NCBI GenBank assembly: GCA_964442705.1
Contig: CAYUAQ010000002.1
Coordinates: 5,959-69,958 of the forward strand
Direction of reading: 5' to 3'
Source of the DNA: an uncultured Desulfobacteraceae bacterium
GTDB taxonomy: Bacteria > Desulfobacterota > Desulfobacteria > Desulfobacterales > JALSRD01
DNA: 64,000 nt
Position 1 is the stretch's first letter, and each line of letters begins with the position of its first letter. Below the pieces are notes generated by a model, which ran no database searches, was not told the origin of the DNA, and was given only the letters and a program-made list of their open reading frames with translations. The position numbers and the translations under genes are program-made. Positions 21,023-48,068 of the stretch are shown in pieces.

Positions 21023-21302
21023 TTTCTGGCGTGAGTGTGCTCCTAAAACGCACGGCGGGCATAAAGGTTACAGTTTTTTAAATTTTGTCGAGATCTCCGG
21101 AAATGACGCTTCCCTGCACGGCCTTGAGAACGGTCTTTACAGCCCATGGCAAAATTGATACATCACCACCATTAAAAGACGCCCAAAACAGGCCGGCCGT
21201 TAATTGGCGGCGCCTGATGCGCATTCGGTTTACTGCCGTCCGCCGCGGCGCAAAACCATAGGTTCCGACAGCTGTCCAGCAGCAGCAGACGCGGAAGGGG
21301 AA

Positions 21303-22661
21303 ATGACGATGGCCGACTTTCTGGAGTTTGTAAAAAGCAGGGATCCCTACGAGAGAGAGTTCCACCAGGCTGTGCAGGGCGTGCTCGGCAGCGTCCGGCC
21401 CCTTTTGGACCAGAACCACGCCTACCTTCAGGCCGGCATTCTTGAGCGCATCACCGAACCGGAGCGCGTCATCACATTCCGGGTACCCTGGATGGACGGC
21501 CGGGGGCGGGTGTGCGTCAACCGCGGCTACATGGTGGAGATGAACAACGCCGTGGGGCCTTTCAAGGGGGGGCTGCGCTTTCACCCTTCCGTCAACCAAA
21601 GCATCCTCAAGTTCCTGGCCTTCGAGCAGGTCTTTAAAAACGCGCTCACCACCCTGCCCATGGGGGGTGCCGCCGGTGGTTCCGATTTCGACCCCAAGGG
21701 CAAATCAGACGCCGAGGTGATGGAGTTCTGCCAGAGTTTCATGAAAGAGCTCTTCCGCCACATCGGCCCCTGCACCGACATTCCCGGAAGCGACATCGGC
21801 GTCGGCACCCGGGAGATCGGCTATCTTTTCGGGATGTACCGCAAGCTGAAAAACGAGTTCACCGGGGCGCTCACCGGCAAGGGTATCGGCTGGGGCGGAA
21901 GCCTCTTCCGGCAGGAGGCCGCCGGTTACGGAGCCGTCTACTTTGCCGCCGAAATGATGAAAGAGCGCTGGAGCCTATCCCTGCAGGGCAGAACCTGCCT
22001 GGTTTCCGGATCGGGAAAAGTGGCTCTCTCGACTGCCGAGAAACTCATCGACCTGGGTGCCAAAGTCCTCACCCTGTCGGATTCCACGGGCTATATTTAT
22101 GACGACGACGGGATAAACCGTGAAAAGCTGGAGTTCGTCAAACGGCTGAAAAACATCCGGCGGGGGCGTATCGAGGAGTACACCGAAAAGTATCCGTCCG
22201 CCGAATACCGCTCACTTCACGAAGCCATGGAACATAATCCTCTCTGGCGGCATCGGGCCGAATGCGCCTTTCCCGCCGCTACCCAGAACGAGATCAACCT
22301 GAAAGACGCCTACCATCTGATCAACAACAACGTGCGGCTCATCTGCGAATGCGCCAACATGCCCTGCACCACCGAAGCGGTGGAAATTTTCCAGAAAAAA
22401 AACATTCTGTACGCCCCCGGCAAGGCGGCCAACGCCGGCGGCGCGGCCGTATCGGGCCTGGAGATGACCCAGAACAGCACCCATCTTCCCTGGAGCCTGG
22501 AAGAGCTGGACAGCCGGCTTGAGATGATCATGAAGAACATCCACACCACCTGCCTGGAGGCCGCCGAACGATATGGGTGCCCGGGGAATTACGCCGTCGG
22601 CGCCAACATTGCCGGTTTCAGCAAAGTGGCCGAGGCCATGCTGGACCAGGGACTGCTCTGA
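21303..22661 (+). CDS. gdhA: NADP-specific glutamate dehydrogenase
   Basis: Start at MTMADFLEF (21303, GGAAGGGGA RBS). Motifs: KGGLRFHPSV, LPMGGAAGGSDFDPKGKS, GSGKVA dinucleotide fold. Confidence 0.92.
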   Translation: MTMADFLEFVKSRDPYEREFHQAVQGVLGSVRPLLDQNHAYLQAGILERITEPERVITFRVPWMDGRGRVCVNRGYMVEMNNAVGPFKGGLRFHPSVNQSILKFLAFEQVFKNALTTLPMGGAAGGSDFDPKGKSDAEVMEFCQSFMKELFRHIGPCTDIPGSDIGVGTREIGYLFGMYRKLKNEFTGALTGKGIGWGGSLFRQEAAGYGAVYFAAEMMKERWSLSLQGRTCLVSGSGKVALSTAEKLIDLGAKVLTLSDSTGYIYDDDGINREKLEFVKRLKNIRRGRIEEYTEKYPSAEYRSLHEAMEHNPLWRHRAECAFPAATQNEINLKDAYHLINNNVRLICECANMPCTTEAVEIFQKKNILYAPGKAANAGGAAVSGLEMTQNSTHLPWSLEELDSRLEMIMKNIHTTCLEAAERYGCPGNYAVGANIAGFSKVAEAMLDQGLL

Positions 22662-22695
22662 AAAATCGCCTCAACCCCAGTGGGGAGATGCACCC

Positions 22696-23169
22696 ATGGA
22701 AGAAAAGCAATTGCTGGAAGGCAAAAGGCTTCTCATTGTTGATGACGAAGCGGATGTCCTGGAAGTACTTGAAGAGTTGCTCGATATGTGCAGGATCACC
22801 AAAGCGTCCAGTTTCGAAGAGGCCCGGGATCTGCTGGAAAATCAGTACTTCGACATGGCCATACTGGATATCATGGGAGTCAAGGGTTATGAGCTGCTGG
22901 AAATCTGCAACCGCAAACGGGTCATACCCGTTATGCTGACCGCCTATGCCATGACTCCTGAAGACATCAAAAGATCCTATGAAAACGGTGCGGCATCATT
23001 TGTACCCAAGGAAAAAATGGCCGACATCACGATCTATCTGACCGACATTTACGAGGCCAGGGAAAAAGGTAAGAACCTCTGGTGGCGGTGGTTCGATCGC
23101 CTGGCGGACTACTGTGAAAGAAAATTCGGGCCCGACTGGCAGAAGGAGCACGGATTCAAAGTGAGGTAG
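22696..23169 (+). CDS. CheY-like single-domain response regulator with short C-terminal extension
   Basis: Start at MEEKQLLEGKRLLIVDDE (22696). REC motifs: DD, D in AILDIMG, T in LTAY, K in VPKE. Confidence 0.8.
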   Translation: MEEKQLLEGKRLLIVDDEADVLEVLEELLDMCRITKASSFEEARDLLENQYFDMAILDIMGVKGYELLEICNRKRVIPVMLTAYAMTPEDIKRSYENGAASFVPKEKMADITIYLTDIYEAREKGKNLWWRWFDRLADYCERKFGPDWQKEHGFKVR

Positions 23170-23174
23170 CGCGA

Positions 23175-24476
23175 TTACAGCATTTTTTGAGGAAGCCACA
23201 GTGCCAGCTGGGGAAACAGCATGGTCAGCAGCAGTACAATCAGCTGCATGGCCACGAAGGGGGGAACCGACCGCCAGATATCTTTGGTGTGAATCTCCGG
23301 CGGGGCAACGCCCTTCATCAGAATCAGGGCCCAGCCGAAGGGCGGCGTCAGGTAGGCCACCTGCATGTTGAGGATGAAAATAATGGCAAACCAGGTGGGA
23401 TCGAAGTGCAGGGTCACGGCAATGGGGATGAAAATGGGCGCGCAGATGGTCAGCACGGCGTAATCGTCCATGAACATGCCAAATACCAGCAGAATGAGCT
23501 GCATGGCGCCCAGAATGAGCCAGCGGTTGACGGCCAGCCCTTCAATCAACTCCATCACCATACCCTGTGCACCGGCACTGGTGTACACCACGCCGAAAAA
23601 GGTGGCCGTCACCAGAATCCACAGGGCCATGCCGCTGATCTTCATGGTTTCCAGGCACGAGTCGGTGACCACTTTCCAGTTCAGCCGGCCGTAGATGATG
23701 CAGATCACGAAGGAGCCGAAGGCCCCCACGCCGGCGGCTTCGGTGGGCGTGGCCACGCCGAAAAAGATGGAGCCCAGCACCAGCACCACCAGCAGGGCCG
23801 GCAGCACGATATCCTTCAGCGACACGAGCCTGGCTTGCCAGGTGGTTTCCCGCTCGGTTCTAGGCGCCAAGTCAGGCTGCAGATAGCAGCGCACCAGGAT
23901 GTAGATCATGTACAGCGTGGCGGTGATGAATCCGGGAATGGCGCCGCCGAAGAAAATCTTGCCGATGGAGATACGCGAGATATAGGCAAATATGATCATG
24001 ATGATGCTGGGCGGTATGATTTCGCCCAGCACCCCGCCGGCCATCACACTACCAAGGGCCAGTGATTTGTTGTAGCGGTGCTTCAACATGGCGGGAACCG
24101 CGATGAGCCCCATGGTGAGGATGCCGGGTCCGAATCCGCCGCACATGGCCAAAGCGACACACACGCCCACGGACACGATGGCCAGCCCGCCTCTGATGCC
24201 CGAAAGCCAGATATTGAGGGCCTTGAACAGGCGGTCGGATATGCCGGAGTGAATCAGGAAGTTGCCCATGAGCAGAAACAGGGGGATGGTGATGAGCCCC
24301 TGATCCGTGATCTGCCGGTAGGTGGTCGTGGCGATGATGTACAGGCCGTTGGCGCCGTCCAGCAGAAACGTCACCGCCACGCTGATGGCGCCCAGGGCGA
24401 AAACCACCGGTACCCCCATGGCCAGGAAGAAAAGCAGCCCGCCGAACAAAAGGGCTGTCGCCGCTTCAATGCTCAT
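23175..24476 (-). CDS. TRAP transporter large permease (DctM family)
   Basis: 433 aa, about 12 TM, with typical DctM N- and C-termini. Adjacent to DctQ/DctP-type genes. Confidence 0.88.
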   Translation of the reverse strand: MSIEAATALLFGGLLFFLAMGVPVVFALGAISVAVTFLLDGANGLYIIATTTYRQITDQGLITIPLFLLMGNFLIHSGISDRLFKALNIWLSGIRGGLAIVSVGVCVALAMCGGFGPGILTMGLIAVPAMLKHRYNKSLALGSVMAGGVLGEIIPPSIIMIIFAYISRISIGKIFFGGAIPGFITATLYMIYILVRCYLQPDLAPRTERETTWQARLVSLKDIVLPALLVVLVLGSIFFGVATPTEAAGVGAFGSFVICIIYGRLNWKVVTDSCLETMKISGMALWILVTATFFGVVYTSAGAQGMVMELIEGLAVNRWLILGAMQLILLVFGMFMDDYAVLTICAPIFIPIAVTLHFDPTWFAIIFILNMQVAYLTPPFGWALILMKGVAPPEIHTKDIWRSVPPFVAMQLIVLLLTMLFPQLALWLPQKML

Positions 24477-24495
24477 CTGGGTTCATCCTCGCTCA

Positions 24496-24984
24496 TCAGT
24501 CATCCCGGCGCAGGAAGCGGGAGACCCCTTCCAGCAGGAAAAGAAAGACCACCACCGGTATCAGCAGTTTGAACGGATACAGGGGAATGCGGAAGGCCCC
24601 CGGTGCTTTCTCTTTCATCATCAGAGAGTTCCATCCCATCCAGGACGACTGCCAGACGAGCACGCCCAGGAAGACAAGCAGCGCCACCAGGGCGATCAAG
24701 CGGGCCGTCTTTTTGAGTCGCGGCGGGAAATGGTCGTAGAATATCTCGATGCGGATGTGTTCGCCCCGGTATAGCGTGTATACGCCCGCGAACAGGATAA
24801 AAACACCGAAGAGGATCCGGTTCAGCATCCAGCCCCACATCAGCGGGTGGTTGAAGACGTATCGGGCAACCACATCGAGGGCGGTGATGGCCATGATGAC
24901 GAATATGAGGTAGCATACGATGCGGCCGGATCGGTCGGAAACCGAGTCGACAATATCAAAAAACCGGTTTAAAGCACGATTCAT
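24496..24984 (-). CDS. TRAP transporter small permease (DctQ family)
   Basis: Start at MNRALNRFFD (24984). About 160 aa, 4 TM helices. Confidence 0.8.
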   Translation of the reverse strand: MNRALNRFFDIVDSVSDRSGRIVCYLIFVIMAITALDVVARYVFNHPLMWGWMLNRILFGVFILFAGVYTLYRGEHIRIEIFYDHFPPRLKKTARLIALVALLVFLGVLVWQSSWMGWNSLMMKEKAPGAFRIPLYPFKLLIPVVVFLFLLEGVSRFLRRDD

Positions 24985-25102
24985 CTTGATCGTCCCAGTG
25001 GCTAGGCCACGTGAGGGCGGGAAAAAACCAGGAGGGTGCCTGCGCACCCTCCTCGCAACTTCCCGCTGATTTTCCTGGCAGAAAAAAGGCGGCCGCGGGA
25101 GG

Positions 25103-26161
25103 CTACTTCAAGGTCTTTCGCCACGCCTTGAGCATCTTGATACCCTCGGCGGCCGCAGCGTCACGAGCAGCGATCTTGTTCCACAGCTTGTAGGCCGCCG
25201 CCTCGTGCTTCTTGTCGCAGGCAGCGTCAATGGGGCTGTTGATGACCTTGCCCTCCTTGACCAGCTTGTCCACCTTATTCATCTCGCCGGCATACACCTT
25301 GTTCAGGGCATGGTAATAGTCCTCGGCCGCACCGGCCAAGGCTTTCTGCAGTTCGGGCGGCAGCGACTTCCAGGTCTCCATGTTGACCAGAATATGGCCC
25401 GGCACCACGTCGTTCTGCCCGCCGATGATGCGGTAGGGGGCAACCTCCTGCCACTTGAGGCCCGTGATGGCGCTGACATCCCACTGGGAGGCGTCGATGG
25501 TGCCCAGTTTCAAGCCCATGTATGCGTCCATGCCGCTGATATAGGTACCATGGGCGCCGAGCATGTTGTAGTAATCCGCCCAGGAACCCTCCACGCGTAT
25601 TTTCATGCCTTTGAGATCATCACAGGTCTTGACCGCTTTGGTAGACATGGTGAACAGGGGGCCGTAGGAGTGCATGTCCAGCCAGTAGAGCCCCTGCTTG
25701 CCGTATTCCCGGCGCAGCAGATCCGCAAAACCGGTATTGAAGAAAAAACCCCGAACCGTGTCGCCAGCCTTGAAAACATCGGGATGTCCGGGAAGGTTGT
25801 AGGCATAGGGCAGGCCGAATTCCACCTCACCCACGGGCACGATCCCACCCCACATGGCGGCAACCGCATGCAGCATGGTCAGGGTCCCCTTTTTGGTGGC
25901 CTCGAAGAGCTGCTCGGCCGGCACCAGTTCTGGATCGGCGAAAACCTGAATTTTGATCCGTCCCTTGCTCCTCTTGTCCGCCGACTTGGCGAATTCCTTG
26001 AGCAGTTCCATGGACACATCACCCCGCGGATAGGCGGACTGGATCTTCATGCGATAGACTTTTTCGCCGGCCTGGGCGTCGGCGCCACCGAACATCAGGG
26101 GAATCACGAAGAGGATCATCGTGACGATGGAAATCAGAATCAAAACGCGTTTTGCTTTCAT
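25103..26161 (-). CDS. TRAP transporter substrate-binding protein (DctP family)
   Basis: Start at MKAKRVLILIS (26161) with a GGGAGGAAGG RBS. Signal peptide, and DctP-like body (KIQSAYPRGD..., MKIRVEGSW...). Confidence 0.85.
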   Translation of the reverse strand: MKAKRVLILISIVTMILFVIPLMFGGADAQAGEKVYRMKIQSAYPRGDVSMELLKEFAKSADKRSKGRIKIQVFADPELVPAEQLFEATKKGTLTMLHAVAAMWGGIVPVGEVEFGLPYAYNLPGHPDVFKAGDTVRGFFFNTGFADLLRREYGKQGLYWLDMHSYGPLFTMSTKAVKTCDDLKGMKIRVEGSWADYYNMLGAHGTYISGMDAYMGLKLGTIDASQWDVSAITGLKWQEVAPYRIIGGQNDVVPGHILVNMETWKSLPPELQKALAGAAEDYYHALNKVYAGEMNKVDKLVKEGKVINSPIDAACDKKHEAAAYKLWNKIAARDAAAAEGIKMLKAWRKTLK

Positions 26162-26338
26162 CGGCCTTCCTCCCTTCTGGTTGATACGTTCCATGTAAAA
26201 AAAGAACAGCGATCCTCCTTGAATATCACCTCCCTGCAGGACGAAAACACCCGTGGGGCCAGGGTTGGAAAACCCGGATGCACGGCTGGAAAAGGGCGGC
26301 CGGTATGCGCCCGATGACGATCTGCGGAGAATGAATCA

Positions 26339-26367
26339 TATTTAGTAAAGACCGCCCGGTCTGTCAA
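26339..26367 (-). promoter_or_regulatory. candidate sigma-70-type promoter of the TRAP operon
   Basis: Minus strand: TTGACA (26367-26362), 17 nt (contains the inverted repeat GACCG-GG-CGGTC), TAAATA (26344-26339). It would leave a leader of about 170 nt. Confidence 0.35.
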
Positions 26368-26469: not shown

Positions 26470-26886
26470 TCACCTCCTGCCGACCAGATAGGACCCCAGG
26501 ATCGCCTCGGCCTCGATCTCGACCAGGTGCTCCGGTCTCGCCAGGGCCTTGACTTCGGCCATGGCGATGACCGGCCGGATGTCCCTGAACCACTCCGAGT
26601 ACGCCTTCAGGTACTCCCGGCCGCGGCTGATGTCGGTGACATAAAAGCGCACCCGCACGACATTGGACATACGCGCACCGGCCTGCTGCAGGACGTCTTC
26701 GATCTTCTGGAGGATGATTTTCGTCTGCAGGTAGGCATCCCCCGGGGCCTCCACCTCGCCCCTGGCGTTGGTGGTCGTCGTGCCGCCCACCAGGACCATA
26801 TTGCCGACCCGCACCGCCCGGCTGTAACCGGCCTTGTCCTCGAAGGGCGCTCCGGATGAATAATTTTTCCGCTTCAACAATTCCAT
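26470..26886 (-). CDS. RidA/YjgF-family reactive imine/enamine deaminase-like protein
   Basis: 138 aa. YSRAVRVGNMVLVGGTT..., ...NVVRVRFYVTD..., ...LVEIEAEA are typical of the YjgF/RidA fold. Confidence 0.8.
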   Translation of the reverse strand: MELLKRKNYSSGAPFEDKAGYSRAVRVGNMVLVGGTTTTNARGEVEAPGDAYLQTKIILQKIEDVLQQAGARMSNVVRVRFYVTDISRGREYLKAYSEWFRDIRPVIAMAEVKALARPEHLVEIEAEAILGSYLVGRR

Positions 26887-26979
26887 GGATGGCTTCCACT
26901 TTCTCTCAATGCGTTTTGCAGAAATCCCGGCGGCGCCTGCTGCCGTGCGGCCATGCCGGCGCGAAACCGTTCCCCGGCG

Positions 26980-27708
26980 TCACGCGCGGTCGTCGAGCTG
27001 CGCAAATTCCTTCACCATGTTGTCGAGCAACCCGGCGGCCAGGTCATAAGGGTCCGGCAGCCGGGCGGTCTGCTCCAGCACGTTGCGGACCCCGGCCACG
27101 AAGGGGCCCGTTTTCCACTCGTGCCCGAATTCTTCGGCAAACCGGCGCACCATGTCCCGGGTGTATTCCGGGTGAAACTGCAGGCCGACCACCGGTCTGC
27201 CCGCCAGGACAAAGGCCTGGTTGGGGGTGGGCGGACTGCTGGCCAGCCGCACACCCCCGGGCGGCAGCGAAAAATGGTCCGCGTGCCAGTGGAAGGTCAC
27301 AAAGGGGTCGGCAACATCGCGAAACAGGAAAGAGCGGCGGCCCTCATCCGTCAAGTGCACGGGATACCACCCGATCTCCTCCTGTTCGCTGGGAAAAACC
27401 CGTCCCCCCAGGATCTCGGCCAGCAGCTGGGCACCGAAGCAGACGCCCAGCACGATCTTTCCGCGATCCACCACTTCGGCAATGAACCGCTTTTCGTCCG
27501 TCAGCCAGGGATGGGCAGCTTCTTCCCAGACATGGGGAGCGCCCCCCATGACCATCAGCCAGTCGAAATCGTCCGGCTGCGGCAGGGCCTGGCCGCTGCA
27601 CAGGTATGTCTGCGCGAGGGAGTGCCCCCTCTCCCGTGCCCAACGTGTGATGTGGGTCCGGGAAAAATCCAGCGAGTCGTGCTCCAGCAGGTGAATTCTC
27701 ATGGTCAC
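26980..27708 (-). CDS. class I glutamine amidotransferase-like protein (possible gamma-glutamyl amide hydrolase)
   Basis: 242 aa. Nucleophile elbow VLGVCFGAQLLA and His/Glu in LQFHPE. Starts 12 nt after the AldDH stop. Confidence 0.8.
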   Translation of the reverse strand: MTMRIHLLEHDSLDFSRTHITRWARERGHSLAQTYLCSGQALPQPDDFDWLMVMGGAPHVWEEAAHPWLTDEKRFIAEVVDRGKIVLGVCFGAQLLAEILGGRVFPSEQEEIGWYPVHLTDEGRRSFLFRDVADPFVTFHWHADHFSLPPGGVRLASSPPTPNQAFVLAGRPVVGLQFHPEYTRDMVRRFAEEFGHEWKTGPFVAGVRNVLEQTARLPDPYDLAAGLLDNMVKEFAQLDDRA

Positions 27709-27720
27709 TGATTCCGCGGC

Positions 27721-29193
27721 TCACGGCCGGCTGCCGTATCGGTAGCGCAGGTCGTCGGTCATCACGCAGCGGCGGATGCGGGTAAACGAGCGCGGCCGGG
27801 TGTGGCCCTCGCCGTTGGTGGCGATGTGGAAAGAGACGTAGCCCTCCCCGGTGACGCCCACCCCGCCCAGGCCGCAGGCCCCGTTCTTTACGAAGGAGGC
27901 GCAGTCGGCGCGGCTGGCCATTTTCTGGATGTTCACCAAGCTGCTGGAGTGGATCGCCATGGTGTGTCCGAATCCCTGTTCGGCCGCCAGGGCCCGTTCG
28001 ATGGCCTGGTCCACGTCGAGGCAGCGCACCAGCGGCAGTATTGGCATGATCTGTTCGGTCCACACCAGGGGGTGGTCGGCATCGGTTTCCAGGATGACGA
28101 TCTGTACCTCGGGCCCCACCTCCAGGCCGATGGATTTCAGGATGAAGGCCGGTGACTTTCCGATGTAGTCCATGTTGATCACGCCGGGCGTGCCCGGCTC
28201 CCCGACTTCCTTGAAGATGTGCTTGAGCAGTGCTTCCCCCTGGGCCGCGTCGATCTCGTAGGCGCCATGCTCTTTCAGTTTGCGCTTCAACGGCTCCGCC
28301 ACCGCTTCGACCACGAAGATCTCCTTCTCGCTGGCGCAGGCGATGCAGTTGGAGAAGCCGGCACCCTGCACGATGCAGCTTGCGGCGCGGTCCAAGTCGG
28401 CGGTTTCGTCCACCACCACCGGCGGGTTGCCCGGACCGCCGGCGATGACCCGTTTGCCCGTCCGGGTGGCGAAATCCACCACCCCGTGACCGCCGGTGAC
28501 GGCGATCATGCCGATGTCGGGGTGGGTCATGAGATGCTGGGCCGAGGGCACCGAGGGCTCTTCCAGGCAGCACAGGCAGTTGGCCGGTCCGCCGGCTGCC
28601 GTGACGGCGGCGTTGAGGTCGCGGATCACCCGCGCCGACACCTCTTTAGTCCTGGGGTGGGGGTTGACCACCACGGTGTTGCCGCCGGCGAGCATCATGA
28701 CGGCGTTGAAGAGAATGCTGGGCGCCGCGTTGGTGACCGGGTGCACCGAGGCGATCACCCCCACCGGCAGCCGCTCGATGATGGTGACCCCCTTGTCGCC
28801 GGCGTAGACCTCGGGCGCCAGGTCCTCCATGCCCATGACCTCGCAGGCGGAGGTGTTCTTGCCCACGTTGTCCCCGGCCTTGCCGAGCCCGGTCTCTTCG
28901 AACTCCATGTTCCCGTAAATTTTGGCGTTTGCCCGTCCGGTCTCGCGAATGGCGTCAATCAGTCGCCCGCGCACCGCCAGCTGCAGGGCCACCAGTTTTT
29001 GCTGCGCCTGGCGGGCCGCCTGGATGCAGGCATCCATGTCCTGGAAAACACCGTCGGTGACGGTGCCTGTGGCGTCATCGCCGCCGGTTTCGCGTGTTTC
29101 GGCTGCGGGCGCAGGGTCGTTCTGCTCCTCCCGGGCGAGCCTGTCCACGACGGTTTCCACGATGCGTTCGATGAGTTTCTCGTCGAGTTTCAT
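27721..29193 (-). CDS. CoA-acylating aldehyde dehydrogenase (PduP/EutE type) with N-terminal encapsulation-peptide-like helix
   Basis: 490 aa. N-terminal amphipathic helix DEKLIERIVETVVDRLA plus a Pro/Ala/Gly/Asp linker. Catalytic-Cys region FSNCIACASEKE. C-terminus ...RSFTRIRRCVM, as in BMC aldehyde dehydrogenases. Confidence 0.9.
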   Translation of the reverse strand: MKLDEKLIERIVETVVDRLAREEQNDPAPAAETRETGGDDATGTVTDGVFQDMDACIQAARQAQQKLVALQLAVRGRLIDAIRETGRANAKIYGNMEFEETGLGKAGDNVGKNTSACEVMGMEDLAPEVYAGDKGVTIIERLPVGVIASVHPVTNAAPSILFNAVMMLAGGNTVVVNPHPRTKEVSARVIRDLNAAVTAAGGPANCLCCLEEPSVPSAQHLMTHPDIGMIAVTGGHGVVDFATRTGKRVIAGGPGNPPVVVDETADLDRAASCIVQGAGFSNCIACASEKEIFVVEAVAEPLKRKLKEHGAYEIDAAQGEALLKHIFKEVGEPGTPGVINMDYIGKSPAFILKSIGLEVGPEVQIVILETDADHPLVWTEQIMPILPLVRCLDVDQAIERALAAEQGFGHTMAIHSSSLVNIQKMASRADCASFVKNGACGLGGVGVTGEGYVSFHIATNGEGHTRPRSFTRIRRCVMTDDLRYRYGSRP

Positions 29194-29233: not shown

Positions 29234-30199
29234 TCACGAACGGCGGTCCTCCTTCTGCGGCCACAGCGAGGTGATCTGCGGCGCGTCCGTGCGATAGGTC
29301 AGCCGCTGGTCGACATCGTCTTCGCGGTAGAATTCGTTGGCCTTCTCCACACCCCGGTCGAACTTGGACATGCAGCGCATGGCCTTGTGGTTGTCGAGAA
29401 AGGCGATCTCGTGCACCAGCGCCCCCAGAAAAACGATGATGTGGCCGAAGGGGTCCACGAAGGACACCCCCTCGATGTCGATGATCACGTACTGGTCCGA
29501 AAGCGTGACGATGGGCGACCGCGGGGTGTCGCTGATCCCGATGGTCCGCACGCCGCACTGCTTGGCGTATTTCATCATCTCGATGGTACGCCGTGGGTAG
29601 CGCGGAAACGCCAGGACCACCATCAGGGTGTTGGGGGGCCCCTCGTTCAGGGCGTCGGTCAGTTCCCAGGAGAGGCTGGTGTCGACGGTCACGTCTTCGC
29701 GCACTTTTTTCAGCAGGTATCCGAAATGGTAGGCCAGTGTGGCCGAGGCCCGGTAGCCGACCACGTACACCCGCTCGGCGTCGAAAATCGTGCGGGCGAT
29801 CTTCCTGAACTCCTCTTCCGTAATCGAGGCCAGCATGTTCTGCAGGTTGGCGATGGCGTTCCGGCAGTAGCGCTGGATGGTGCTCCCCTCGTCGGAAACC
29901 GGGCGCGTGTGGGTCAGGCGCTCGGAACTGGTCAGTTCGGTGTGCAGCAGGGCCTTCATGTAGTGCAGAAAGTCGGCGTAGCCGGAAAATCCCAGGTCCA
30001 CGCTGAAACGGATGATGGTCGGTTCGCTGACGCCGCACTTTTCGGCGATCTCCCGTGCCGTCATCAGAAAGATGTTCTTGTAGTCACGCATGATCATGTC
30101 CGCCACCCGTCGCTTCTTGGGAGACAGGCGCGGATAGACTTGAATGATCCTGTCGAACAGGTCTTTCTTGGCTGACTTTATCTCTTCGCCCCGGGGCAT
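29234..30199 (-). CDS. RpiR/MurR-family transcriptional regulator (HTH_6 + SIS)
   Basis: 321 aa. HTH LMTAREIAEKCGVSEPTIIRFSVDLGFSGYADF, then a SIS-type sugar-isomerase-like fold (RVYVVGYRASATLA...). Confidence 0.85.
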   Translation of the reverse strand: MPRGEEIKSAKKDLFDRIIQVYPRLSPKKRRVADMIMRDYKNIFLMTAREIAEKCGVSEPTIIRFSVDLGFSGYADFLHYMKALLHTELTSSERLTHTRPVSDEGSTIQRYCRNAIANLQNMLASITEEEFRKIARTIFDAERVYVVGYRASATLAYHFGYLLKKVREDVTVDTSLSWELTDALNEGPPNTLMVVLAFPRYPRRTIEMMKYAKQCGVRTIGISDTPRSPIVTLSDQYVIIDIEGVSFVDPFGHIIVFLGALVHEIAFLDNHKAMRCMSKFDRGVEKANEFYREDDVDQRLTYRTDAPQITSLWPQKEDRRS

Positions 30200-30899: not shown

Positions 30900-32105
30900 T
30901 CATATGCTCTTGAGCCACTCGCGCCTGTTGGGGCACACGGCCGTGACGGTGGTGCAGGCGGCGTTGCCGTCGCAGGCGCACTCGTGCTCGGCGTCTTGGT
31001 AGAAGCGCCCGTAGCAGAAATCGTGAATGGGCAGCGAGGTCTGGCAGTCCAGGATCAGCTCGCCGATCAGCCGGCCGATGACAGGCGCCAGGCCGAAACC
31101 GTGGCCGCAGAAACCCGTCACGAACACGAACCCGGGCACCTCCGAGGTGAGCCCCAGCACCGGGATGCCGTCCGAGGTCTGGGCGATGAGGCCCGACCAC
31201 ATGCGGATCACGTTGAGGTTCCTGAGCACCGGGAAATAATCGATGACCATCCGCGAAATGGCCGGCCCGATGTGGTGAAACAGCGGTTTGCCCCGGCGGT
31301 AGATGAACTGCTCGGTGCCCACGAAACCGCCCCAGAAGAAGGGTCCGTGCACCGTCTGCCGGCCGTAGAACAGCCCCCTGGCGTGCCCCACCATCTGCGC
31401 GAAGAGCGGCGGGTAGGGCTCGGTGATCATGGCCTCGGAAAAAATAGGGCGCATGGGAAAATCCAGCCCCACCATGTTGGCGATGCGCCGGCCGGCCACC
31501 CCGGCGGCGTTGACCACCACTTCGGTTTCAAAAACGTGTTTGTCGGTCACCACCGCGCTCACGCGTCCCTTGCGCAGCCGGATGCGGTGCACCTCCTCCT
31601 GGGTGTAGAAGCGCGCCCCCAGGCTCTTGGCCTTCTTGAAGTAGCCGTAAGTCACCAGGAAGGGATTGACGTGGCCATCCGTGGGACAGAAGCTGGCGCC
31701 CACGACCTTTTCTCCCACGTAGGGGTTGATCTCCAGCACCTGGCGGCGGTCGAGCATCTCCAGCTCCAGGCCCGCTTTCTTCTGGTTCTCCACCGCGTTT
31801 CGCATCAGATCCAGCTCTTCCTCGCAGGTGCACAGCCGCAGGTTTCCCTGGCGCACGTACTCCACGTCCATGCCCAATTCCTCGTGCAGCTGGCCGTACA
31901 TGCGGATGCTCTCCATGGCCAGCGGCATTTCCTTGAGGTTGCGGGCGGACTGGCGCACACCGCCGCCGGTGCTGCCGGATGCCTCGCCGCCGATGTCGGA
32001 CTTTTCGATAACCACCGGCTTCAATCCGGCCTTGGCCAGGTTGTAGGCGATGGCGCATCCCATGACGCCGCCGCCGATGATGACCGTGTCGGCTTTCTCG
32101 GTCAT
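30900..32105 (-). CDS. FAD-dependent amine/amino-acid dehydrogenase, DAO family (SoxB/HcnC/OoxB-like catalytic subunit)
   Basis: Start at MTEKADTVIIGGGVMGCAIAYNLA (32105, GGAGG RBS); the 88-aa upstream extension of the track ORF is rejected. 401 aa with a Cys-rich C-terminal tail. Confidence 0.85.
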   Translation of the reverse strand: MTEKADTVIIGGGVMGCAIAYNLAKAGLKPVVIEKSDIGGEASGSTGGGVRQSARNLKEMPLAMESIRMYGQLHEELGMDVEYVRQGNLRLCTCEEELDLMRNAVENQKKAGLELEMLDRRQVLEINPYVGEKVVGASFCPTDGHVNPFLVTYGYFKKAKSLGARFYTQEEVHRIRLRKGRVSAVVTDKHVFETEVVVNAAGVAGRRIANMVGLDFPMRPIFSEAMITEPYPPLFAQMVGHARGLFYGRQTVHGPFFWGGFVGTEQFIYRRGKPLFHHIGPAISRMVIDYFPVLRNLNVIRMWSGLIAQTSDGIPVLGLTSEVPGFVFVTGFCGHGFGLAPVIGRLIGELILDCQTSLPIHDFCYGRFYQDAEHECACDGNAACTTVTAVCPNRREWLKSI

Positions 32106-32131
32106 TGGACCTCCTGTGTTCGTAGGCTCTC

Positions 32132-32797
32132 TCAGCTGTTGGCAAAAACCTGCAGGCGAATGGGCCGCACCGGACCCCGGGCGGTGGTGGGGTCGATGTC
32201 TCCGGGTGCCAAGCCCAACTCCTCGGTCAGGATGCGCGCCACCAGCGTCTGGCAGGTCTGCCCCTGGCACAGCCCCATGCCGGCCCGGGTGATGCGCTTG
32301 ATGCCGTTTAACGTATGCATGCCGTTGCGGATGGCTTCCTTGATCTCCCCCTTGGTGATCTCCTCGCATCGGCAGATGACCAGGTCGTCGTCAGGGTCGC
32401 GGGTCTGCCCGCCGGTATCGGCCCCATCCGATGCGGCCGCCGGCGCCGCCGGGGTCGGTTCCCCCTTGAGCTGCCGGAAGCGCCGGATGACGCGCTCAAC
32501 GATCTCATCGAGCTGCGCCTCGGTAAACCCGTCTGCAGCATCCGCCGCGTCCCCGCCGGATGGCTTCTCCGGCGTTTCCGGCTCTTTGGAGTCCGTCGCC
32601 GGATCGGCGGACTCTTCCTCCGGCGAAGGGGCAGGAACGCTTTTCCCCGAGGCCACCGTTTTGACGCGAATGCCGTGCTCCCGAATCAGATCGGCGGCCG
32701 CCGAAGAGATACGGGCCCCCCCGGGGACTTCGATTTCCTTCTGTCCGGACCTCACCAGGTGCCGGACTTGCTCGGCGAATATGAAAACAGGTGCCAT
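32132..32797 (-). CDS. BFD-like [2Fe-2S] protein with N-terminal EutQ-N-like motif and internal encapsulation-peptide-like helix
   Basis: 221 aa. C-terminal ICRCEEITKGEI...GMGLCQGQTC (BFD-type). The central helix EAQLDEIVERVIRRFRQL is flanked by low-complexity Pro/Ala/Glu/Asp linkers. Confidence 0.75.
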   Translation of the reverse strand: MAPVFIFAEQVRHLVRSGQKEIEVPGGARISSAAADLIREHGIRVKTVASGKSVPAPSPEEESADPATDSKEPETPEKPSGGDAADAADGFTEAQLDEIVERVIRRFRQLKGEPTPAAPAAASDGADTGGQTRDPDDDLVICRCEEITKGEIKEAIRNGMHTLNGIKRITRAGMGLCQGQTCQTLVARILTEELGLAPGDIDPTTARGPVRPIRLQVFANS

Positions 32798-40889: not shown

Positions 40890-42185
40890 CTAGTAAAACC
40901 CGAAGGGTTCGCCGAAGGTGAAATTGGACCCGATCAGCGGGATGCCGGTCATGGCACAGATCTCCAAGGTCAGCGAACGCAAATCCTCGCGCTCCAGGCT
41001 GGTCAGCTTGGTCTTGCCGGCGGCCTTGGCCAGGATGACGGCCTCGTTGGTCATGGCCTGGATGTAGTTGGCCACCTGCCGGGCGGCGCGGTCCACGTCC
41101 AGGCGAAGTCGCTCTTCGGGATCCTGGGTGCCGATGCCGAAGGCGCAGCGCCCCTCGTGGCAGCGCAGGCAGACCACGCACCCCATGGCGATCATGGCGC
41201 CGGTGCCGATGGCCACCGCATCGGCCCCCAGTGCCAGGGCCTTGGCCACGTCGGCCCCGTCCTTGATGCCGCCCGAGACGATCAGGCTGACCTCTTCCTT
41301 GACACCCATGTCCTCCAGGGAGCGCACGGCCTGCACCAGGGCCGGCAGCGTGGGAATGCCCAGGTGGTTGGAGGCCACCACCGGCGCCGCGCCGGTGCCG
41401 CCCTCGGCGCCGTCGATGACGATGCCGTCCACCCCGGCCTTGACCGCGATCTTGACGTCTTCCCAGACGCGGCCGGCGGCGATCTTGATGAAAATGGGAA
41501 TCTCACCGTCGGTGACGTCCCGCAGTTCCTCCATCTTGAGGCACAGGTCGTCGGCCCCGAAGATGTCGCCGTGGCGGGGATGGCTGTGCAGGTCGATGCC
41601 CTCGGGCAGCTGCCGGAATTCGGCGATCTCCTTGGTGATCTTGCTGGCCATCAGGTGCCCCGAGAGGCCCGGCTTGGCGCCGATGCCCACGATGATCTCC
41701 AGGGCGTCGGTGGCCTCGATGTTGCGCAGCGTGAAGCCTATGCGGCTGGGCAGGATCTGCACCACCTGCTTGTAGGAGTTGGCGCGCTCCTCGGGCAGCA
41801 GGCCGCCCTCGCCGTTGTTGATGGAGGTGCCCACGATGTCCGTGGCCTTGGCCAGGGCGATCTTGGCCTCCTTGCTCAGGGCGCCGTAAGACATGCCCGA
41901 GATCATGATGGGGGTTTCGATGACCAGGGGCTTCTTGGCGAAACGGGCGCCCAGCACCGTGCGAGTCTGGCAGTCCTCGCGGTAAGTGTCGATGGACATG
42001 CGCGTGAGCTGCGACGGCAGGAAGGTCAGGTCGTCAAAGTGCGGCAGCTTGCGCGGGGTGCCGCATCCCCGGATGCGGTGCTTGCCCGCGCTGGCCTTGT
42101 ACTTGATCTCCGATATGGTCTCCGCCGACCACACGCCCCGCTGGACATCCTTGGCTCTGGGGGTCTTCTTCTCTTCTGCGGCCAT
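40890..42185 (-). CDS. glutamate-synthase FMN-domain-like protein (MgsC/GlxD-like)
   Basis: 431 aa. ISGMSYGALS, DGAEGGTGAAP, GGIKDGADVAKALALGADAV, Cys cluster CVVCLRCHEGRC. ATGA overlap with the upstream gene. Confidence 0.85.
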   Translation of the reverse strand: MAAEEKKTPRAKDVQRGVWSAETISEIKYKASAGKHRIRGCGTPRKLPHFDDLTFLPSQLTRMSIDTYREDCQTRTVLGARFAKKPLVIETPIMISGMSYGALSKEAKIALAKATDIVGTSINNGEGGLLPEERANSYKQVVQILPSRIGFTLRNIEATDALEIIVGIGAKPGLSGHLMASKITKEIAEFRQLPEGIDLHSHPRHGDIFGADDLCLKMEELRDVTDGEIPIFIKIAAGRVWEDVKIAVKAGVDGIVIDGAEGGTGAAPVVASNHLGIPTLPALVQAVRSLEDMGVKEEVSLIVSGGIKDGADVAKALALGADAVAIGTGAMIAMGCVVCLRCHEGRCAFGIGTQDPEERLRLDVDRAARQVANYIQAMTNEAVILAKAAGKTKLTSLEREDLRSLTLEICAMTGIPLIGSNFTFGEPFGFY

Positions 42186-42886
42186 TATCCCTGTGCCCTT
42201 CGTTTGTGGGTTGGTTTGAAAAGAACGTACTCGTGACGCCCATAGACCTTGGGTACGATGGTGTGGAAATCCTCCACGCCGTGTTCGACGCCGTATTTCG
42301 CGAACAGGGCTTCCAGTGCGCTTTTTTCGCTATCCTCGACGGGGATCAGGCGCACGTTGCCACCCAGTTTTTTCTCGGCCGCCGCGTCCATCACGTGGAT
42401 GCGGCCATTGTACATAGACTCGCCGATGCCCTCGCCCACGCTTCCCAGGATCACGATGCGCCCGCCCAGGGTCATCTTGCCGGCCCAACGCCCCACGTCG
42501 CCGCACACGATGAGCGTGCCGCCCTTCATGCCCCAGCCCGCCCGGCTGCCGGAGTTTCCCCGGATCACGATGGTGCCGCCCACCATGGAGGGCGCCGCGT
42601 TGCTGCCGGTGTTCATCTCCACGATGATCTCGCCGGCCGACATGTTGTCGCCGGTGTACCAGCCGGTGTTGCCCTCGACCACGATGGCGGGCCCCTCCAG
42701 GAATCCGCCCGTGTAGAAGCCCGTGCTGCCGTGCACGGTGATTTTCCCTTCCCCCTTCAGGGCGGTGGCGAAGTTGTGGATGGAGTGGGGGTTGTCGACT
42801 TCGATCTGGGCCTCTGTCTTGATCAGCTCCCGCAGCCGGCGATTGACTTCCCGGGAGCTCATGCCTGCTATGTCTAAACGGACCAT
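42185..42886 (-). CDS. GXGXG-motif protein (glutamate synthase C-terminal-domain-like; MgsB/GlxC-like)
   Basis: Start at MVRLDIAGMSSREVNRRL (42886). Repeated beta-helix motifs (HGSTGFYTGGFLEG, EGNTGWYTGDNMSAG, RGNSGSRAGWGMKGG). Confidence 0.85.
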   Translation of the reverse strand: MVRLDIAGMSSREVNRRLRELIKTEAQIEVDNPHSIHNFATALKGEGKITVHGSTGFYTGGFLEGPAIVVEGNTGWYTGDNMSAGEIIVEMNTGSNAAPSMVGGTIVIRGNSGSRAGWGMKGGTLIVCGDVGRWAGKMTLGGRIVILGSVGEGIGESMYNGRIHVMDAAAEKKLGGNVRLIPVEDSEKSALEALFAKYGVEHGVEDFHTIVPKVYGRHEYVLFKPTHKRRAQG

Positions 42887-43773
42887 ACCCGTACTCCTCC
42901 TGGATCCATCTCCGTGGCATAGACGTCGGAGACGATGGGGGTTAAACAAATCTGTTCCGATCCCAGCAGTACCGTTCCGTCGCCCTTTTCGAAGAACAGT
43001 ACGGGCTTGATGCCCAGCCGGTCCCGCAGGGCGCCGATTTTGTCGGCGGTGGAGGCCAGGATGGTGAACACGCCGTCGAAGGTTTCCAGTCCCTGGTGAA
43101 GGGCCGCCTCCAGGTCCAGTCCCTTCTCCTTCATCTGGTGGGCCAGGAAGTGAACCGCCATCTCGGAGTCGTTGTTGGTCTTGAAGCGCACGCCCCAGCT
43201 CTCCATACGGCGGCGCATGTTGAAGTAGTTGGTGAACTGGCCGTTATGCACGATGGCCAGCTCGGGGTAGAGGTAGGAGACGAAGGGGTGCGCGAAATTG
43301 ATGTTCTCCACACTCTCGGTGGCCAGGCGCACGTGGCCGATGCCGTGGGTGCCCAGGGTGGGCGGAATGTGGTGCTGCTCCTGCAGCTCGGCGGCCGACC
43401 CCTCGTCCTTGTATACCTTGATGCGGCGGCCCAGGGAGTGCACGCAAAGTTCCGGGTGGTCGTCGATGGCCCGGTGCAGGTCGGCCATGCGGGCGTCATC
43501 CATGTCCACGCAAGCCTCGTAGAAGGTGAAAACCCCCCGTCCCTGGTAGCAGCGCTCTTCGGAGATGCGCCCGTAGGCGCCGATGACCTGCTCCAGCTTT
43601 TCACGGTGCTCTGGTGCCGTCAGCGATACCCGCAGGTCGACGGTGTCCCGGTTTTCGTAGACCGCGATCCCCGTGGCGTCCCGGCCGCGGTGGATGAGTT
43701 CCTTGAGCATGCTGATCAGATCGTTTCCCAGCGTGGGGGAATCCTTGGCAATCAGCCCGGCGATACCGCACAT
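42874..43773 (-). CDS. class II (Ntn) glutamine amidotransferase-like protein (MgsA/GlxB-like)
   Basis: 299 aa. Met-Cys N-terminus MCGIAGLIAK (Cys nucleophile after Met removal). GHVRLAT, HNGQFTNY. Confidence 0.85.
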   Translation of the reverse strand: MCGIAGLIAKDSPTLGNDLISMLKELIHRGRDATGIAVYENRDTVDLRVSLTAPEHREKLEQVIGAYGRISEERCYQGRGVFTFYEACVDMDDARMADLHRAIDDHPELCVHSLGRRIKVYKDEGSAAELQEQHHIPPTLGTHGIGHVRLATESVENINFAHPFVSYLYPELAIVHNGQFTNYFNMRRRMESWGVRFKTNNDSEMAVHFLAHQMKEKGLDLEAALHQGLETFDGVFTILASTADKIGALRDRLGIKPVLFFEKGDGTVLLGSEQICLTPIVSDVYATEMDPGGVRVWSV

Positions 43774-45446: not shown

Positions 45447-45890
45447 CTATCTCTCCAGATGGATGCAGTGGGCCAGGCAGACGTTGTCGGCGCAGGCCGG
45501 CAGCAGCCCCCGGTCGATGCGGTGATGGCAGAGGTTGCATTTCCAGGCAACCCCGGCCTCGTCATCCAGACCGATGGCATCGTAGGGGCAGGCCTCCAGG
45601 CAGGCGCCGCAGCCCGTGCACTGGTCGCGGTCCAGGATCACGATGCCGTCGGACCGGACCGTGATGGCCTCCACCGGGCAGGCGTCGGCGCAGGGGGGAT
45701 CTTCACAGTGCCGGCAGACGGTGACGCCGAAGATCACCTGCATGCGGCCGTCGATTTCGCGGGGAGCGTCTTCGTGAATGCGAATGAGCTTTACCCCGGT
45801 CGGCGCCCGGTTCTCCTGCTTGCAGGCCACCTCGCAGGTCTTGCACCCCCAGCAATAGAACGCCTCGATGAACAGAGACGGTTTTTGCAT
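45447..45890 (-). CDS. 4x[4Fe-4S] ferredoxin-like beta subunit of a molybdo/tungstopterin oxidoreductase
   Basis: Start at MQKPSLFIEAF (45890; start and upstream stop share one nt). Motifs CWGCKTCEVAC, CRHCEDPPCADACP, CTGCGACLEACP, CNLCHHR...C. Confidence 0.85.
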   Translation of the reverse strand: MQKPSLFIEAFYCWGCKTCEVACKQENRAPTGVKLIRIHEDAPREIDGRMQVIFGVTVCRHCEDPPCADACPVEAITVRSDGIVILDRDQCTGCGACLEACPYDAIGLDDEAGVAWKCNLCHHRIDRGLLPACADNVCLAHCIHLER

Positions 45891-48049: not shown

Positions 48050-48068
48050 TCTGTATTTTCCTTCTTGC

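Follow-up and report, generated by a model that had tools for sequence, protein, structure and literature searches.

A class I amidotransferase-fold protein and an Arg105-less Rid protein as putative helper enzymes of an orphan MIC6 microcompartment locus

The 64,000-nucleotide stretch analysed here, hereafter called the window, comes from an uncultured Desulfobacteraceae bacterium (GenBank assembly GCA_964442705.1, contig CAYUAQ010000002.1, positions 5,959 to 69,958 of the forward strand) and carries, at the tail of a bacterial microcompartment (BMC) operon, adjacent genes for a protein with the class I glutamine amidotransferase fold (GATase1) and a Rid/YjgF-family protein (Rid). From the letters alone, these two had been proposed to complete a gamma-glutamyl cycle like the Escherichia coli Puu pathway (PuuA–D) and to detoxify imines (the sequence-only reading). 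We arrive at a different picture, to which we assign a probability of about one half, in which GATase1 and Rid would be cytosolic helper enzymes of an amine-degrading metabolosome of the MIC6 type, with no stand-alone Puu-type pathway. Beside a glutamine synthetase (GS)-like ligase encoded in the same operon, GATase1 likely serves as an accessory gamma-glutamyl-amide hydrolase, to judge from its sequence and gene context, and Rid would be a core partner of the flavin dehydrogenase of the locus.

Gene calls and locus type

The genes on which the argument turns are the following (AldDH, aldehyde dehydrogenase):

26980..27702, minus strand: GATase1 gene, 240 aa from ATG 27702; the open reading frame extends to GTG 27708 (242 aa)
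26470..26886, minus strand: Rid/YjgF gene, 138 aa; PF01042, E 1.5e-25
27721..29193, minus strand: predicted CoA-acylating AldDH of PduP/EutE type, 490 aa, immediately 5' of the GATase1–Rid pair
30900..32369, minus strand: DAO subunit of a predicted multi-subunit amine dehydrogenase (Pfam); the BFD and DAO pair fits the MIC6 description
32132..32797, minus strand: Fer2_BFD/SO_alpha_A3 subunit of the same amine dehydrogenase (Pfam)
40890..43773, minus strand: MgsABC-like trio (class II GATase, GXGXG subunit, glutamate-synthase FMN domain)
43855..45195, minus strand: GS-family ligase without the DGSS signature; Gln-synt_C, E 4e-103

GATase1 and Rid can be taken as genuine genes rather than chance open reading frames, since both have clear Pfam matches (PF00117, class I glutamine amidotransferase, 61.5 bits, E 1e-16 for GATase1, and the PF01042 match given above for Rid) and hundreds to thousands of homologues were found. 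The class I amidotransferase-fold protein that had been described as starting 12 nt after the AldDH gene was confirmed as an open reading frame with GTG 27708 at that distance from the AldDH stop (27721). The true start is probably ATG 27702, two codons further on and 18 nt from AldDH, because orthologues and PDB relatives begin MRIH. A further 93 nt separate the GATase1 stop from the Rid start.

The surrounding 22 kb form a one-strand microcompartment operon, in which the GS-like ligase gene is followed by the GATase_2/GXGXG/FMN-domain trio and by genes for Fer2_4, Pyr_redox_2, Fer4, BFD and DAO proteins, then by seven shell genes, genes for PduS-like and EutJ-like proteins and an RpiR regulator, and finally by the tail, with acylating AldDH, GATase1, Rid and a TRAP transporter. 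Judged by its domain content against the published supplement, this is the orphan 'MIC6' metabolosome, a type described from three loci with no function given (Sutter et al., 2021). The criteria listed there are an AldDH with an N-terminal encapsulation peptide, a pfam04324 protein, a pfam01266 DAO protein, two CcmP-like BMC-T, PduT-type and GrpU-type shell proteins, and occurrence in anaerobic Deltaproteobacteria; the description makes no mention of GATase1, Rid, TRAP or GS-like genes (Sutter et al., 2021, and its supplement). Close relatives of the locus are found in Desulfobacterales metagenome-assembled genomes (MAGs).

GATase1 resembles free-standing cysteine hydrolases

The Cys-His-Glu triad noted in the sequence-only reading could be assigned to C88/H177/E179 (numbered from the ATG) from the nucleophile elbow GVCFGAQ and the QFHPE motif. 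These three residues, as well as Q92 and Q162, are invariant among 21–22 orthologues from related loci, and so are G86, G90, A91 and the segment Q175-F-H177-P-E179, the G-x-C-x-G-x-Q and H-P-E motifs being present. Such a triad is common to the whole class I GATase superfamily and is not specific to PuuD, and closer comparison set the two apart. Against Peptidase_C26 (PF07722), GATase1 scored 20.6 bits over the whole protein for a cut-off of 20.5, with no single stretch passing, so that it was not assigned to this family; the PuuD model was absent from its NCBIfam matches; and a single comparison with E. coli PuuD gave 23% identity over 185 residues with 19% gaps (E 0.004). On this evidence, GATase1 has the fold and catalytic machinery of PuuD but falls outside the PuuD family.

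The best PDB relatives were instead 9xfs, 1o1y (TM1158), 3l7n and 7d54 (E 1e-28 to 1e-22), with stand-alone proteins of about 240 aa ranking first, GMP-synthase glutaminase domains next and the plant gamma-glutamyl peptidase GGP1 more distant. GATase1, at 240 aa, has no fused synthase domain and aligned with these relatives (236–250 aa) almost end to end; it has no terminal extension relative to them, and hence nothing resembling an encapsulation peptide. Its best NCBIfam match, NF005458, reached 146.7 bits for a cut-off of 250, short of the PRK07053-like equivalogs. The comparisons place GATase1 as a free-standing cysteine hydrolase of the TM1158/MsGATase/plant GGP1 group rather than the PuuD group. 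Its S1 site, moreover, appears to be of the glutamate type. In GGP1 structures, Q104, four residues past the nucleophile, and a later Q156 help to hold the glutamate moiety (PMC12958103); Q92 of GATase1 has the same offset from C88 as Q104 in GGP1, and Q162 may be the counterpart of Q156, a match drawn from the motif and not from an alignment.

A 687-aa open frame of a GATase paralogue in another genome (G001) was considered as a possible fusion and rejected, the GATase being a separate gene between ECH and PrmA genes that is unrelated to the locus.

Three non-orthologous hydrolases in the same slot

The strongest argument for the proposed activity comes from two loci in which another hydrolase stands where GATase1 is expected. 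In L066, a sister BMC locus of a Thermodesulfobacteriota MAG (1–21416) whose AldDH is 52% identical to that of the window, a Peptidase_C26 gene (208 bits, 31% identity to PuuD) lies between the AldDH and MgsA genes. This locus has an Mgs-like trio and, in place of the DAO complex, an octopine-dehydrogenase-family gene, and a GS-like orthologue was not found in its genome at E 1e-60. In the split locus of genome G049, a BFD-DAO-CcmP-RpiR-Rid block is followed by a different class I GATase gene (28% identity to the window GATase1; PF00117 70 bits, Peptidase_C26 47 bits) and then by a response regulator gene, with the TRAP gene dctM further downstream on the opposite strand; Rid has thus stayed with the BFD-DAO-RpiR block, and the RpiR gene with the DAO, Rid and TRAP genes. 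Three non-orthologous glutamate-releasing cysteine hydrolases therefore occupy the same place in BMC loci with Mgs-like genes, which argues that hydrolysis of gamma-glutamyl amides is the activity needed there. Since the hydrolases co-occur with Mgs-like genes (in MIC6 and in L066), this activity would operate alongside the Mgs-like trio and not instead of it.

Both loci have further features. L066 also encodes a B12-binding corrinoid protein, two URO-D-type methyltransferases and a PIG-L deacetylase. In the Desulfobacula-type MAG G049, MIC6 lies on two contigs (L135, on C79, and L041), which may reflect a true split or an assembly break: one bears shell, Mgs, GS-like and two AldDH genes, and the other the BFD, DAO, CcmP, RpiR, Rid, different GATase, response regulator and TRAP genes.

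Rid and GATase1 are linked to MIC6 loci

In a synteny survey, the window AldDH was used as a neutral anchor to collect 79 loci from species-representative genomes, onto which the window proteins were mapped, and tallies were limited to MIC6-type loci extending 3 kb or more beyond the last AldDH gene, of which there were 26. Rid was encoded in 25 of these, with 66–84% identity to the window protein; it is as conserved as AldDH, and no other enzyme of the operon tail is so constant. The TRAP binding protein occurred in 21/26, GATase1 in 16/26 (52–63% identity to the window protein) and a second AldDH paralogue in 10/26. The same AldDH query also brought in approximately 30 BMC loci of other types, whose AldDH is at most 49% identical; Rid, GATase1 and TRAP genes were absent from all of them.

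A large protein collection was sampled for GATase1 homologues at 57–83% identity, and all six lay in or beside MIC6 loci. Their positions differed, being after AldDH, after Rid with (near-)overlapping stop and start codons, after TRAP genes beside a molybdopterin oxidoreductase gene (with an 8-nt overlap), or overlapping a glutamate dehydrogenase (GDH) gene. Ten genomes had no GATase1 within 10 kb of AldDH, and seven of them had an orthologue elsewhere: one divergent beside the GS-like gene at the locus head (L115), two just past the TRAP genes, and four unlinked, with inconsistent neighbours (TetR/GltD-like; CCG; MttB and saccharopine dehydrogenase; a thioesterase and a pyridoxal phosphate (PLP) enzyme). 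Of the 20 loci holding both GATase1 and Rid genes, 17 have them side by side, nine in one order and eight in the reverse order, and each gene is present as a single copy in the source genome.

Rid belongs to a clade without Arg105

The protein described in the sequence-only reading as of the RidA family proved to be a Rid/YjgF protein at the distance given, but not a member of the RidA subfamily. In the PDB its best match was 3i7t (Mycobacterium tuberculosis Rv2704; E 1e-27), which lacks Arg105 (PMC5038272). The residue of Rid aligned with Arg105 was Ile107 when HMMER was used with archaeal RidA proteins and Ala110 when MAFFT was used with E. coli RidA; the Ile107 column contains I/T/L/V in 38 MIC6 orthologues, the Ala110 column an invariant Ala in a 21-row alignment, and Arg was never observed in either. 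Rid also scored 61.1 bits against the RidA model TIGR00004, below its cut-off of 106.25. The exclusion from RidA follows from the constant absence of Arg105 in the 38 orthologues. Equivalents of Tyr17 and Glu120 are retained (Y21 in 35 of 38 orthologues; E123/E125 invariant), and an invariant Y21-S22-R23 motif, GYSRAV clade-wide, has R23 in place of Gln19 of E. coli RidA.

Arg105 is needed for imine hydrolysis, and the Arg-less Rid4–7 subfamilies have been called 'mysterious', with one Rid7 protein found inactive (Niehaus et al., 2015; PMC4433059). Rid4 and Rid7 have Trp at the Arg105 position, which is variable in Rid5 and Rid6 (PMC4433059). The Ile/Thr or Ala found here rather than Trp argues against Rid4 and Rid7, and the protein belongs with the Arg-less, Rv2704-like Rids. 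It has no terminal extension resembling an encapsulation peptide.

In an exhaustive search of 1.84 billion representatives, the closest relatives of Rid outside MIC6 were proteins with three tandem Rid domains and one with six, in all of whose domains the GYSRAV-type motif is present and Arg105 absent. Gene context was readable for three of the triple-Rid fusions. P0245 directly follows genes for Fer2_4 (65% identical to that of the window), Pyr_redox_2/Fer4 (56% and 50%), BFD (45%), DAO (37%) and flavodoxin proteins and is flanked by ornithine-cyclodeaminase/mu-crystallin genes, with no shell gene called in the fetched DNA. P0252 likewise lies in a locus without a called shell gene, with Fer2_4, Pyr_redox_2, BFD and ornithine-cyclodeaminase-family genes and an AldDH gene directly after Rid, whereas P0248 adjoins the gene for a Cys/Met-metabolism PLP enzyme of the PLP gamma-lyase family. 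A DAO subunit is encoded in L123 and L124; in L164 the DAO gene is outside the fetched DNA and an Aldedh gene is located right after the Rid gene. The Rid clade is thus repeatedly linked to imine- or enamine-releasing enzymes, twice to the dehydrogenase family of MIC6 itself.

The triple-Rid fusions (P0244–P0253; loci L123, L124, L125 and L164) are about 380–420 aa long, the six-domain protein has 803 aa, and the former are presumably single-chain pseudo-trimers. Within MIC6, a second Rid paralogue (51–53% identity, 143 aa) occurs between an old yellow enzyme (OYE) gene and dctP in three loci with a second AldDH (L037 at 16527, L049 at 16423, L051 at 8387), and a tail of Rid and OYE genes follows the second AldDH in L021, L025 and L049.

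Ligase, Mgs-like trio, dehydrogenase and AldDH

The GS-like ligase has 34% identity to PuuA (E 1e-61), and its PDB matches were true glutamine synthetases (the best), GmaS (9qur, 3e-62) and, more distantly, NpaA1 (162 bits); it remained under every curated cut-off. The ligase lacks the DGSS motif that marks the ammonium loop of glutamine synthetases (PROSITE GLNA_1), which makes an amine, not ammonia, its likelier substrate. A true glutamine synthetase acting with GOGAT at the locus head was considered and rejected as the main reading, given the missing DGSS and scores below the curated GlnA cut-offs, despite real glutamine synthetase structures as the best PDB matches.

The MgsA-like protein begins MCGIAG and so retains an intact N-terminal nucleophile (Ntn-Cys); with GATase1 beside it, the locus would have two different amidohydrolases for glutamyl amides. 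Wherever the upstream part of a locus was visible, the Mgs-like trio was there, and in MIC6 and L066 it is accompanied by hydrolases of the class I GATase fold. The AldDH matched NF011927 (acylating PduP type) with 520 bits for a cut-off of 403 and the PuuC model with only 43 bits, and is 25% identical to E. coli PuuC. Identity of the DAO protein to PuuB was also 25%. Accompanied by Fer2_4, Pyr_redox_2, Fer4 and BFD subunits, this protein is, by its domain context, one subunit of an HcnABC/opine-oxidase-like flavin iron-sulfur enzyme, and the DAO and BFD subunits are likely functional partners of Rid. A non-acylating, NAD-dependent PuuC-type AldDH and a single-subunit PuuB oxidase, both expected of a Puu pathway, are accordingly not what the MIC6 locus encodes.

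We also looked to the TRAP binding protein for the substrate of the locus, and made no call since its best solved relative, a lactate-binding protein, gave only 90 bits.

Transcription of the operon tail

Scanning revealed no terminator-like site between AldDH, GATase1 and Rid (with 7 sites overall against 6.0 expected, the scan was at chance level), and past the AldDH gene a convincing hairpin with a T-run first occurs after dctP (25053–25030). The 93-nt spacer and the 275-nt gap between Rid and dctP fold no better than shuffled sequence (z about 0), and in relatives the gaps are of 0–25 nt or the genes overlap. A promoter scan was likewise at chance level, with a TTGACA hexamer at 26367–26362 for which no well-spaced −10 element was flagged. 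AldDH, GATase1 and Rid are, on this showing, likely co-transcribed.

Proposed roles of GATase1 and Rid

We propose that the GS-like ligase would tag an imported amine with glutamate, that the Mgs-like trio and the HcnABC-like dehydrogenase would turn the tagged amine into an aldehyde, and that the acylating AldDH would capture this aldehyde as acyl-CoA. Cys88 of GATase1 would attack the gamma-carbonyl of a gamma-glutamyl amide to yield glutamate and amine, the substrate most likely being the gamma-glutamyl-amine made by the ligase of the locus, or else a later gamma-glutamyl intermediate. Beside the Mgs-like trio, GATase1 would then serve as a valve for overflow or recycling that returns glutamate, comparable to AtdA2/NpaA2, and such a role would account for its being common but dispensable, mobile in position and faster diverging, with a recurrent GDH neighbour. 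Of the gamma-glutamyl hydrolase function put forward in the sequence-only reading, this keeps an intact free-standing hydrolase with a glutamate-type S1 site, linked across many genomes to the BMC locus and the GS-like ligase and replaced in its slot by other hydrolases, and places it outside the PuuD family.

Rid, in turn, would be a core partner of the HcnABC/opine-oxidase-like dehydrogenase, speeding the conversion of its imine product, or of an enamine/imine by-product, into the carbonyl compound used by AldDH. It would do so by hydrolysis or tautomerisation of the imine in a remodelled site that lacks Arg105 and has the invariant Arg23 after the active-site Tyr; the missing Arg105 would be sensible for an imine carbon without a carboxylate, as in an N-alkylidene amino acid. 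The suggestion that RidA quenches an imine released by the flavoenzyme accordingly survives in part: the Rid gene is tied to a DAO-type dehydrogenase here and in unrelated non-BMC loci, and Arg105, the basis of known imine hydrolysis by RidA, is missing. Action inside the shell is not indicated for either protein, neither having an extension like an encapsulation peptide. A bolder version makes the Arg105-less clade dedicated hydrolases or isomerases for imines formed by HcnABC/opine-oxidase-type dehydrogenases on N-substituted amino acids, with Arg23 binding the substrate, the aldehyde passed to AldDH, and Rid and GATase1 working as a coupled pair in MIC6, a pairing proposed because the two genes adjoin in both orders. 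We regard this version as speculative and unlikely.

Several observations weigh against the assignment of helper roles to GATase1 and Rid. GATase1 is much less conserved (52–63%) than its neighbours (70–89%), and the window protein sits on a long branch away from its synteny-matched relatives, grouping with a same-genus copy. Two MIC6 genomes with long contigs have kept the GS-like gene (80% and 54%), and no GATase1 orthologue was found in them nor any class I GATase near the locus, so that GATase1 is not an obligatory step of the pathway. MsGATase (7D54), the closest characterised sequence relative of GATase1, is described as a glutaminase, and plain hydrolysis of glutamine would also fit. 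For Rid, Arg105 has been required for all imine-hydrolase activity measured so far, the Arg-less Rid7 being inactive (PMC4433059). Since Rid, like GATase1, has no extension resembling an encapsulation peptide, a cytosolic Rid could not reach an imine formed inside the shell. Furthermore, none of ten single-domain Rid relatives from the same phylum (36–48% identity) adjoins an amine-dehydrogenase gene, which limits the dehydrogenase link to the MIC6 orthologues and the triple-Rid fusions. For both clades, function is read from sequence.

As to the divergence of GATase1, the window protein is only 53–57% identical to its copies in L028, L070 and L033, the loci whose flanking genes are the closest relatives of those in the window, though AldDH is 72–81% and Rid 83–84% identical there; this suggests fast evolution or replacement of the GATase1 gene alone.

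Alternative explanations

In a strict Puu-like linear pathway, the amine would be gamma-glutamylated, oxidised within the shell to a gamma-glutamyl aldehyde and converted to the acid or acyl-CoA, GATase1 would remove the glutamate as an obligatory last step, and Rid would quench the imine. A GS-family ligase with 34% identity to PuuA, a DAO-family protein, an AldDH and a GATase1-fold hydrolase are indeed all in the locus, GATase1 directly follows AldDH here and in several relatives, and in L066 the gene after AldDH is a true Peptidase_C26. We nonetheless consider such a pathway improbable. The parallel of four activities drawn in the sequence-only reading dissolves on inspection, likeness to PuuD, PuuB and PuuC (23%, 25% and 25%) being at the superfamily level only; DAO would be one subunit of an HcnABC-like complex, and a CoA-acylating AldDH would deliver a thioester, not a PuuD-type substrate. 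The pathway would also leave without a role the Mgs-like trio found wherever the upstream part was seen, and sits poorly with the widely varying position of GATase1 and with the two ligase-bearing genomes in which no orthologue was found. The idea of a second pathway model competing with one centred on the trio fares no better, as trio and hydrolase co-occur rather than replace each other and GATase1 is dispensable in some MIC6 genomes. GATase1 might alternatively be a plain glutaminase (glutamine to glutamate and ammonia) that balances nitrogen with a nearby GDH, the role of Rid being unrelated to imines. The description of MsGATase fits this, as do an S1 site able to serve glutamine and gamma-glutamyl amides alike, the recurrence of GDH genes beside GATase1 or the operon tail, and orthologues located away from the locus. 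We hold it unlikely, given that the place of GATase1 is taken in L066 by a PuuD-family Peptidase_C26 and in G049 by another class I GATase, that one orthologue stands in divergent orientation beside the GS-like ligase gene, that the linkage is specific to MIC6 and absent from some 30 other BMC loci, and that glutamine is not expected as a product of a ligase without the ammonium loop.

Class I GATases usually work with a synthase, and GATase1 could be the glutaminase subunit of an unrecognised amidotransferase whose synthase is encoded nearby, for example by the molybdopterin oxidoreductase, Amidohydro_3 or Rid genes. In L024 its gene shares 8 nt with that of a molybdopterin oxidoreductase, in L039 and L014 the two are neighbours, and the GATase1 gene adjoins Rid in the 17 loci mentioned above. 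However, the locus contains no known synthase family, the neighbour of GATase1 changes with the locus (AldDH, Rid, OYE, TRAP, molybdopterin oxidoreductase, GDH or GS-like), and hydrolase activity is proven for GGP1, a member of the same group of stand-alone proteins of about 240 aa; the chance that GATase1 is such a subunit is very small indeed. Hardly greater is the chance that GATase1 and Rid are hitch-hikers with no part in the BMC, belonging with the TRAP transporter or with housekeeping, as might be supposed from the lack of an encapsulation peptide on either protein, the 275-nt gap ahead of dctP and the GATase1 orthologues unlinked in four genomes. Against it stand the presence of Rid in 25/26 MIC6 loci and its absence from all the other BMC loci, the single genomic copy of each gene, the short or overlapping upstream gaps in relatives, and the fact that the TRAP genes are themselves part of the conserved locus.

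Comparison with known systems

With the Puu pathway, MIC6 shares a GS-family gamma-glutamyl ligase, a DAO-family flavoprotein, an AldDH and a Cys-His-Glu hydrolase of the GATase1 fold. It differs in that its hydrolase is no member of Peptidase_C26 and is dispensable in some genomes, its AldDH appears CoA-acylating and its DAO protein a subunit of an iron-sulfur flavoenzyme, and in the addition of the Mgs-like trio, shell proteins, Rid and a TRAP transporter. The nearest parallel in function to a common but dispensable partner is offered by the aromatic-amine pathways for aniline and 1-naphthylamine, which begin with a GS-like ligase, the gamma-glutamyl-arylamide synthetase AtdA1/NpaA1, ahead of the dioxygenase. 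Its companion AtdA2/NpaA2, a GAT-like hydrolase that is likewise free-standing, undoes the ligation by cleaving gamma-glutamyl-arylamides and is a non-essential safety valve (PMC11335346). These pathways differ in being aerobic and in having no microcompartment, and NpaA1 is only distantly related to the GS-like protein. In a tblastn search of plasmids, one sequence (H79) was considered as an AtdA2/TdnT candidate and rejected, since its context is one of PLP/tryptophan genes with no aniline cluster.

Among the stand-alone class I GATases, TM1158 of Thermotoga maritima (1O1Y), SMU.1228c of Streptococcus mutans (3L7N) and MsGATase of Mycobacterium smegmatis (7D54) share with GATase1 family (E 1e-28 to 1e-22), length, triad and the Gln after the nucleophile, and Arabidopsis GGP1 (9K7I; E 6e-5 to GATase1) proves that gamma-glutamyl isopeptides are hydrolysed in this group; most bacterial members, however, have no known function, and none is linked to a microcompartment or a Rid gene. 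The N-methylglutamate pathway (GmaS, MgsABC, MgdABCD) also has a GS-like ligase and a GATase_2/GXGXG/FMN-domain trio upstream of an amine dehydrogenase but has no class I GATase and no Rid, whereas MIC6 has an HcnABC-like dehydrogenase, an acylating AldDH and a shell. As for Rid, the GYSRAV motif and the absence of Arg105 are shared with Rv2704 (3I7T), for which no function or partner is known, whereas the MIC6 Rid is tied to a flavin amine dehydrogenase. RidA/Rid2 genes likewise cluster with those for DAO-family, FAD-dependent amine oxidases (DauA/DguA; PMC4433059, PMC5619798), but these proteins keep Arg105 and hydrolyse 2-imino acids.

Pairing of a GS-like ligase with a GATase1-fold hydrolase (Puu, Atd/Npa) and Rid genes beside DAO-family enzymes are therefore already known. 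What is new is that both are embedded in an orphan microcompartment locus, that the hydrolase recurs in three non-orthologous forms next to Mgs-like genes, and that an Arg-less Rid clade, including single-chain triple-Rid proteins, is tied to HcnABC-like dehydrogenases; full-text searches of one literature collection found no paper tying the GATase1 and Rid families to MIC6. No function has been assigned to the MIC6 type of BMC, and none of the Arg-less Rid subfamilies defined in 2015 has since gained a known activity. The present data point to two enzyme pairs, GS-like ligase with GATase1 and HcnABC-like dehydrogenase with Rid, and argue that gamma-glutamyl and N-substituted-glutamate chemistry would belong to one pathway rather than to two competing models. 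Were the Arg-less Rids indeed dedicated to these imines, a function would be known for them for the first time, and the chemistry of an orphan microcompartment would be settled; were GATase1 and Rid to serve nitrogen housekeeping only, the finding would be an ordinary one.

Other genes of the window and minor observations

Other features within or near the operon are listed below:

29234..30199, minus strand: RpiR/SIS regulator within the operon, HTH_6 and SIS domains
45890-48082, minus strand: molybdopterin oxidoreductase, 730 aa, at the operon head
23175..26194, minus strand: TRAP transporter block 3' of the Rid gene (Pfam)
25103-26194, minus strand: dctP
24496-25047, minus strand: dctQ
23175-24476, minus strand: dctM
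25030..25053, minus strand: terminator-like hairpin after dctP, 10 pairs and a T-run
21204..22661, plus strand: glutamate dehydrogenase-family gene, convergent on the operon tail
22573-23169, plus strand: single-domain response regulator gene, convergent on the TRAP end
62237-63805, minus strand: Amidohydro_3 paralogue (30%)

The true start of dctP is probably ATG 26161, preceded by GGGAGGAAGG, which gives 352 aa as in relatives, and the strong hairpin and T-run right after this gene are a common arrangement behind TRAP binding-protein genes. No subfamily could be assigned to the molybdopterin oxidoreductase, whose best models, PhsA and Fdh-alpha, were each under cut-off; its orthologue in L014, L039 and L044 (81–83%) is located at the tail, adjoining the GATase1 gene, and the counterpart with the 8-nt overlap in L024, also at the tail, was recognised at the Pfam level. 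GDH-family and response regulator genes are found as well at the MIC6 tails of L019, L023, L024, L050 and L135, and in L023 the GDH gene overlaps the GATase1 stop.

The tails of several MIC6 loci (L023, L029, L031, L050, L052 and L064) include a gene coding for an Amidohydro_3 protein of about 570 aa, often accompanied by a Liv-type ABC transporter, OYE, Peptidase_M20 or cyclophilin-like gene. In the source genome, its orthologue (82%) is on a separate 2-kb contig, C205, the 30% paralogue being the one within the window. The recurrence of this gene is a hint that an amide or an N-acyl compound may be the true substrate.

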